Positions 17,962-19,437 of a stretch of 34,875 bases of DNA are shown here, in pieces (within the stretch, counting starts at the first letter, position 1; each line of letters opens with the position of its first letter). Under the pieces are notes generated by a model. The model saw only the letters and a program-made list of their open reading frames with translations, was not told where the DNA came from and did not search any database. This DNA is from a virus (lineage: Duplodnaviria > Heunggongvirae > Uroviricota > Caudoviricetes): IMG/VR virus record IMGVR_UViG_2917413769_000004. The stretch is one strand, 5' to 3'. The position numbers and the translations under genes are program-made.

Positions 17962-19437
17962 GCAGACGCCCCCAGACAGTTGCAACAAACATAATCCGTG
18001 CCAGCCGTTCCTGCAGGTCATCCGCGTTCATCTGCGGGTACAGCTCGGCCAGTTCGCCCAGCAGCTCAGACGGGTTAACACCATCCTCTACCCGCTTAAA
18101 CAGAGGAGCCAGTACGGGTTCCAGCGTGCCATTTAACGCGCCTCCGTTCATCAGAATATCCAGCGCGTCGTCCAGGGCCTGCTGTGCCTGAATATCGGCA
18201 TCAATGGCCTCGGCAAATGACAGCGGCAGCATGTTCTTCTGGCGTTCTGACGGTGGTGTCTCGTCAATATCGCCGTCCTGCAGCTGGTACTCACGCTTGA
18301 AGTATTTCGGGGTGAAGACCACACCGGCGCGGCTGAGTTTCTCGTCGCGGGTCGCCTGGGTATCGTCGACCGTTCCCTGTTCCCACATCTTCCAGACGGG
18401 GCTGGCCACATCGCCAAAGTTCATTGATACCGCCATCCTGATAGTCTGATTCACCGCGCTTTCCACGATATCAGCGTCAGCGTCACGGATATCATCGGTG
18501 ACCTCCAGTCCGGCCTGCGCGGAGGCGCGGTTACTGTTAGCCTCGGTGGTCTGGTTCTGCCCCAGCAGGGCGATGGAGATTTCACTGCGGGCAAGCGTTA
18601 TCAGGTTCTGATAAATATCGCTGCTGTCGGCCTTGCCTGCGGCCTCCTTAATTTCAATGGAGGAATCGTCAGGGATAGCGGCCACCGCATCCTCCACCAT
18701 TGCCTCCATGGAGTCCAGCAGCAGGTCAATTTCGCCCTGTGCCGTACCGCGCGGATGCTTGCCGATAACCCACGGTGAGCCGTATTTCTCGGCAAAGCGT
18801 ACCCAGAACTTCATGCCGCCTTTTTTGAATGTCACGGGCCAGAAGCACATCGACAGGTCAGGGAAGCCATATGGGTTGTCGTAGGTCGCGTCCTGACGCG
18901 GTACCACGAACTTGTTCAGTGGTACCGGCTCGCCTTCCAGCCCGGCGTCTTTAGCGCGAAAGCGCAGCAGGTTGTCGTTATCGAACTGGAACCACTCCGG
19001 TGGTTTACCCACGATATCGGCAATGGCCCAGGATTTAACAGAGCGTCCCCACATGATCTCACAGGCTGATACCCGTAGAGAACGGCGTCGGTCATCTCGC
19101 CGATGATGCGGGACAGATCCAGATCGTCGAGCATATCCCGGATGAAGCTGAATACCCGTGCCGGGGCATGACCGCGTTCAAGGCCGCGCTCCAGTGATTT
19201 GACCGCCGCCTTACGCCTGCGAATGCAGCCGCCGACCAGCGGGTCGGTACGCAGCTCGCGATAGATGCGGATATCCCGGCCCTGAGATTTAAGAATAGGG
19301 TCAGGGTTAGGCAGGTACATCCCCAGCCCGAAGAAGTCGATGGAGCGGCTGCGCGAGGCGATCTGCTCCGTCAGCGTTTTATTGGGTTCGGCAAAAGAGA
19401 CAAACTCATTGGGTGAAACCCAGAGTCCACGGGCCAT
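17942..19437 (-). pseudogene. Portal protein gene (Mu gp29-like) interrupted by an apparent 1-nt frameshift near 19059
   Basis: Two overlapping ORFs (19437-18916 and 19054-17942) in adjacent frames give the N- and C-terminal portal parts; continuity would need one extra base around cctgtg^agatcatgtgg. Confidence 0.75.

Follow-up and report, generated by a model that had tools for sequence, protein, structure and literature searches.

The portal gene of a Mu-like prophage in Escherichia sp. E1130 is split over two reading frames in the deposited sequence, where one base of a three-base run is missing. Sequence comparison indicates that the split is very probably a sequencing or assembly artefact, an Ion Torrent homopolymer miscall that turned GGG into GG, and that the gene would be intact in the organism; we favor this reading because the missing base and an intact portal are both present in another assembly of the strain. 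The analysis covered a stretch of 34,875 nt (IMG/VR record IMGVR_UViG_2917413769_000004), to which we refer as the window.

The split portal gene and its missing base

The genes around the portal are all on the minus strand. The features on which the argument draws, with their coordinates in the window, are as follows.

17140..17961, minus strand: Mu F-like head morphogenesis gene, intact, directly downstream of the portal (273/273 residues aligned; Pfam Phage_Mu_F)
17942..19437, minus strand: portal gene (Mu gp29 type, Pfam Portal_Mu / DUF935) of the Mu-like prophage, identified by tblastn, Pfam and the annotation of relatives
17942..19054, minus strand: 370-codon ORF with an internal ATG start, equal to portal residues 129-498
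18916..19437, minus strand: 173-codon ORF, portal residues 1-125 followed by ~47 out-of-frame codons
19064..19065, no strand assigned: putative error site, with GG on the plus strand (coding CC) for GGG (CCC), from DNA alignment and from indel lists against KP12, E. coli GON1437, Logan SRR8835199 and VATL01000005.1
19437..20960, minus strand: large terminase subunit gene, intact, directly upstream of the portal (507/507 residues aligned to the KP12 terminase)
26011..26018, no strand assigned: putative second run-length artefact, A8 here against A7 in VATL, both Logan assemblies and KP12

The two-frame split is a direct reading of the sequence and involves no statistical pattern. The portal is 1496 nt long in the window, one fewer than the 1497 nt (498 codons and a stop) of intact copies. 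When the KP12 portal was aligned to the window with tblastn, residues 1-125 fell at 19437-19063 and the remainder (126-498) at 19063-17945, the two frames being offset by one base. Pfam agreed with this placement: the first piece matches positions 2-73 of the Portal_Mu profile (PF06074) at its residues 57-126, and the second piece matches positions 76-336 (E=1e-72). The claim of a split portal, made earlier in a sequence-only reading of the window, is thereby borne out, within the coordinates given there (19040-19075). Once the base is restored, the 498-aa protein matches the profile over its full length (2-336 of 336; E=9e-92; 308 bits, cut-off 23.9), and its gene has the large terminase on one side and the Mu F-like head gene on the other, the order seen in Mu-like phages; nothing about it is then unusual for the Portal_Mu (Mu gp29) family, formerly DUF935. 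The exact protein of the 370-codon ORF occurs in the protein collection only as a Logan gene call from SRR6148301.

DNA alignment puts the missing base at 19064-19066, some 5 nt away from position 19059, where the lesion had previously been placed. Relatives read CAG CCC TGT GAG (QPCE) at this site and the window reads CAGCCTGTGAG; one C of the CCC run is therefore absent, a change in the length of a run of one and the same base (GG vs. GGG on the plus strand). With the base restored, the peptide reads ...LYGYQPCEIMWGRS..., as the alignment of relatives gives it, and not ...QPV-EIMW as had been proposed. The sequence-only reading had also stated that there was no homopolymer at the site. This was wrong, since a C3 run on the coding strand reads C2, although it is unrecognizable as such from the window alone.

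Every relative that we examined has a single Mu gp29-type portal gene of 498-499 codons. The nearest relatives are E. coli prophages (96% identity) and a record named "Klebsiella phage KP12" (94%), and the relatives' matches are 1602 nt long where the window has 1601 nt. A search of 5426 complete E. coli genomes gave 633 near-full-length matches, and in the 30 records listed among those matches the portal is annotated as a DUF935 protein. The records that we fetched (E. coli GON1437, E. coli 3-72 and phage KP12) have one CDS each, 1497-1500 nt long (DUF935 / FluMu gp29). A search with a pattern for the site returned the intact 26-nt (CCN) form in 16/16 matches in IMG/VR and in 1/1 in GTDB, and an exact search of IMG/VR and the GTDB representative genomes did not find the deletion allele of the window.

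Two of the records encountered on the way deserve comment. A partial portal from Enterobacter roggenkampii (WP_063930264.1, on a 15.9-kb contig) starts with EIMWGRS, a few bases from the 19064-19065 site, and its GenBank version, SAF35774.1, is also 370 aa long; we take this start to be a contig-end truncation that happens to fall near the same spot. The KP12 record (OM835952.1, "Klebsiella phage KP12 clone KP12_2") is filed under Vequintavirinae, yet it is 94% identical to the Mu-like prophage over most of the length and encodes a transposase, a MuB-like ATPase, Mor and Portal_Mu. The record probably represents a co-purified prophage filed under the wrong taxon.

Assemblies and read sets of strain E1130

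The window is 100% identical to part of PDIL01000020.1 (GCA_004745435.1, Escherichia sp. E1130, 383,389 bp), with zero gaps or mismatches over alignments of 21.5, 14.1 and 14.7 kb; its position 1 corresponds to position 149,969 of that contig, and the portal GG lies at 169,032-169,033 there. The window's terminase has the same protein sequence as TGC22617.1 and TLI74070.1, both from Escherichia sp. E1130. The NCBI annotation of PDIL01000020.1 leaves the interval from the terminase to the Mu F-like gene empty, as it would if the portal had been scored as a pseudogene. The PDIL00000000 assembly (E1130, N50 383,389) was made from single-end Ion Torrent reads of 35-400 nt at 50x, using MIRA and SPAdes, after which gaps were closed manually (PMC6639607). 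The window thus rests on a sequencing technology that tends to err in run length.

A second NCBI assembly of E1130 gives a different picture of the portal. Contig VATL01000005.1 (GCA_005781065.1) aligned to window positions 7942-29438 (21.5 kb) with 0 mismatches and exactly two gaps: the portal site reads GGG, and the run at 26011-26018 is A7 and not the A8 of the window. Both differences restore ORFs. The contig encodes an intact 498-aa Portal_Mu protein, deposited as TLI74069.1 / WP_138211427.1 ("DUF935 domain-containing protein"), whose accession adjoins that of the terminase TLI74070.1. A Logan de novo assembly of SRR8835199, a second run, aligned over 16,957 nt without a mismatch and with gaps at the same two places, and it was identical to the window at 1948-6641 and 30050-34875. 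The portal change is therefore absent from independent sequence of the same strain, with GGG in VATL01000005.1 and in the SRR8835199 assembly alike. A literature search on SRR8835199 and the VATL assembly found only the Ion Torrent announcement.

The sequence-only reading had left open an assembly error as one option and had named, as evidence that would overturn its view, reads with an additional base that restores a single ORF of about 496 codons. Such a base is present in both the VATL and the SRR8835199 assemblies, where it gives an ORF of 498 aa, and the assembly-error option is supported accordingly. Because both of these data sets contain the extra base, the biological reading of a recently inactivated prophage that cannot make heads is unsupported; we saw no evidence for such a recent loss.

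The second gap lies in a non-structural gene. A 177-codon gene (25857-26388, minus strand) is broken by the A8 run into a 126-residue and a 56-residue piece; gene calls from VATL and the two Logan assemblies have it whole. Judged from these alignments, the A8 run appears to be an artefact of the same kind as the portal lesion. The 177-aa product has no Pfam match and is named "lipoprotein" by some sources.

Run-length differences extend into the host DNA. Over ~6.4 kb to the right of the prophage, PDIL and SRR8835199 differ by two single-base short run calls and 0 substitutions, so that PDIL holds other errors of the same type (A8 vs. A7 at 26011-26018; CC/CCC and G/GG in the host). Across the roughly 38 kb compared in total there were four differences, all of them single-base changes in run length, with 0 substitutions, which amounts to about one run-length error per 10 kb; both of those within the prophage break ORFs. 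As to the location of the host differences, the CCC run that is CC in PDIL lies in the ugpA fragment and the GG run that is G lies in a livH-like permease gene, and there is no PGAP gene call in PDIL at either site.

We also compared the window with the Logan assembly of SRR6148301, which agrees with it in every substitution. It shares GG at the portal site but has A7 at the second site, and it carries four more run deletions (at 6243, 10382, 20167 and 28328) where the window is intact; the one at 20167 breaks the terminase into 265 + 237 aa. Given the agreement in every substitution, SRR6148301 is presumably the Ion Torrent run of E1130 (SRX3260321). The indel sets of this assembly and of PDIL differ, which makes the indels assembler-dependent, a mark of read noise.

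Explanations for the two-frame layout

In flow-based sequencing, the length of a run is inferred from signal amplitude. Undercalls of short runs happen at times, depending on context and strand, so that one wrong length can dominate the pileup and be taken over by any assembler. At the portal site, GGG would have been read as GG, and the miscall would have survived into the consensus of the Ion Torrent-only draft PDIL01000020.1; we infer that it originated at base-calling and not in culture. Ion Torrent PGM data are known to contain deletions at short homopolymers as well as strand-specific ones (PMC3431227). An early PacBio genome offers an analogous case of false frameshifts, in which undercalled runs gave apparent frameshifts that were removed by resequencing (PMC4687164). 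The present case resembles flow-based miscalls (Ion Torrent PGM, 454) in its single-base run change, in the documented platform and in the occurrence of several indels without substitutions, each breaking an ORF that is otherwise conserved. It differs from most reported consensus-level homopolymer errors in that the run is shorter, only 3 bases, and the shortness of such a run for a consensus-level error at 50x speaks against an artefact. Both assemblies that apparently derive from the Ion Torrent run carry GG, so most reads of that run probably have GG as well, as would also be expected from a genuine deletion in that DNA preparation.

Such a deletion, CCC to CC in the culture or DNA preparation used for Ion Torrent and absent from the second, would make this a recently inactivated prophage. 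We regard it as unlikely, even though GG is present in two assemblies apparently of the first read set (the submitters' and Logan SRR6148301) and the portal is dispensable for the host, so that a mutant could drift up in a laboratory stock. The lesion was not reproduced in independent sequencing of E1130: the gene is intact in the second NCBI assembly and in the second read set of the same strain. The sole other difference in 21.5 kb likewise alters a run length and breaks a second ORF, adjacent host genes hold two more short run calls, and Logan SRR6148301 has its four extra run deletions, which the submitted assembly lacks. There are no substitutions anywhere, an error signature rather than that of culture divergence. 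The chance is similarly small that GG was truly present in the Ion Torrent preparation through a spontaneous deletion in a laboratory subculture of E1130, absent from the stock that was sequenced later. If that were true, the GG deletion would be a Mu-like prophage caught at the moment of inactivation.

The two frames could in principle also be used as they stand, through programmed recoding (a -1 ribosomal frameshift) or as a functional portal of two polypeptides, and here we put the probability close to nil. The second frame is indeed -1 relative to the first, with an overlap of ~260 nt, and an ATG at 19054 opens the second piece. However, the overlap (~19177-18919) holds neither an X XXY YYZ heptamer nor a run of five or more bases; the only such heptamer of the ORF, at 19421, is outside the overlap and in the wrong phase; and just a weak GAG precedes the ATG at 19054. 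Tail assembly chaperone pairs (P2 E/E+E', lambda G/GT) are a known example of -1 frameshifting in phages; their sites have a slippery heptamer and a two-frame layout that is conserved among relatives. The portal is like them in having two adjacent frames for one product, but it has no slippery site and its relatives are single-frame; neither the second E1130 assembly nor any relative examined shows the two-frame layout. A portal functioning in two pieces is further unlikely because the break sits inside a conserved domain, between Portal_Mu profile positions 73 and 76. We accordingly rejected programmed frameshifting and transcriptional slippage (no slippery heptamer or long run in the overlap, a single ORF in relatives), as well as a functional split portal (a break within Portal_Mu that the other assembly of the strain lacks). 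The sequence-only reading had likewise dismissed programmed frameshifting, and is supported in this by the missing slippery heptamer and by the relatives, all of which have one ORF.

The prophage and the meaning of the lesion

We mapped both ends of the prophage. The left junction (host ...GTGGCGGC / TGATGCGCC...) lies 302 nt outside the window's left edge, and the right junction (...TCTAATCA / GGCGGCGTCG host) lies at 34635/34636; the window therefore misses the leftmost 302 nt and includes 240 nt of ugpA at its right. The prophage has TG...CA termini and an apparent 6-bp target duplication (GGCGGC), is located inside the host ugpA gene and measures ~34.9 kb in total. It is not Mu itself: a Mu-like transposition and head module is joined to a P2-like contractile tail, and BcepMu-type phages give weak DNA matches in the sheath region. 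The termini, the duplication, the insertion in ugpA and the full-length head and tail genes with a KP12 counterpart fit a recently transposed, probably functional Mu-like phage.

The sequence-only reading had taken every structural gene other than the portal to be intact, and this holds for the head and tail genes that have a KP12 counterpart, all of which are full length; the tail-fibre genes at ~400-2456 are too diverged to judge. The portal is not the sole broken gene, given the 177-codon gene at the A8 run and a net +2 in the invertase. Full-length head and tail genes, together with the TG...CA ends and the GGCGGC duplication, argue against recent inactivation.

The DNA invertase gene lies at the left edge of the window (1-360, minus strand) and has a net gain of two bases at ~37-46 (cacACgtCatg; relatives read cacgtGatg). 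The gain puts everything after residue 108 out of frame and is no simple run-length change. The lesion might be real, or it might stem from manual gap closure beside an invertible segment. An exact look-up of the reconstructed intact invertase in the protein collection found no match. Next to the gene, a ~76-nt inverted repeat (2 mismatches) at 421-496 and 1908-1983 encloses a segment in which genes for tail-fibre C-termini and for tail-fibre assembly occur in both orientations. The segment (421-1983) looks like an invertible host-range cassette similar to the Mu G segment.

The split portal is very probably not a biological feature but a property of the deposited sequence only, and the finding matters only as quality control. 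Users of the PDIL assembly would wrongly score the E1130 prophage as defective, a caution that may extend to 15 sister Ion Torrent assemblies from the project. At about one run-length error per 10 kb, the PDIL assembly is likely to contain false pseudogenes throughout; for E1130, the VATL assembly is preferable. As far as its sequence can tell, the prophage itself looks complete and potentially inducible.
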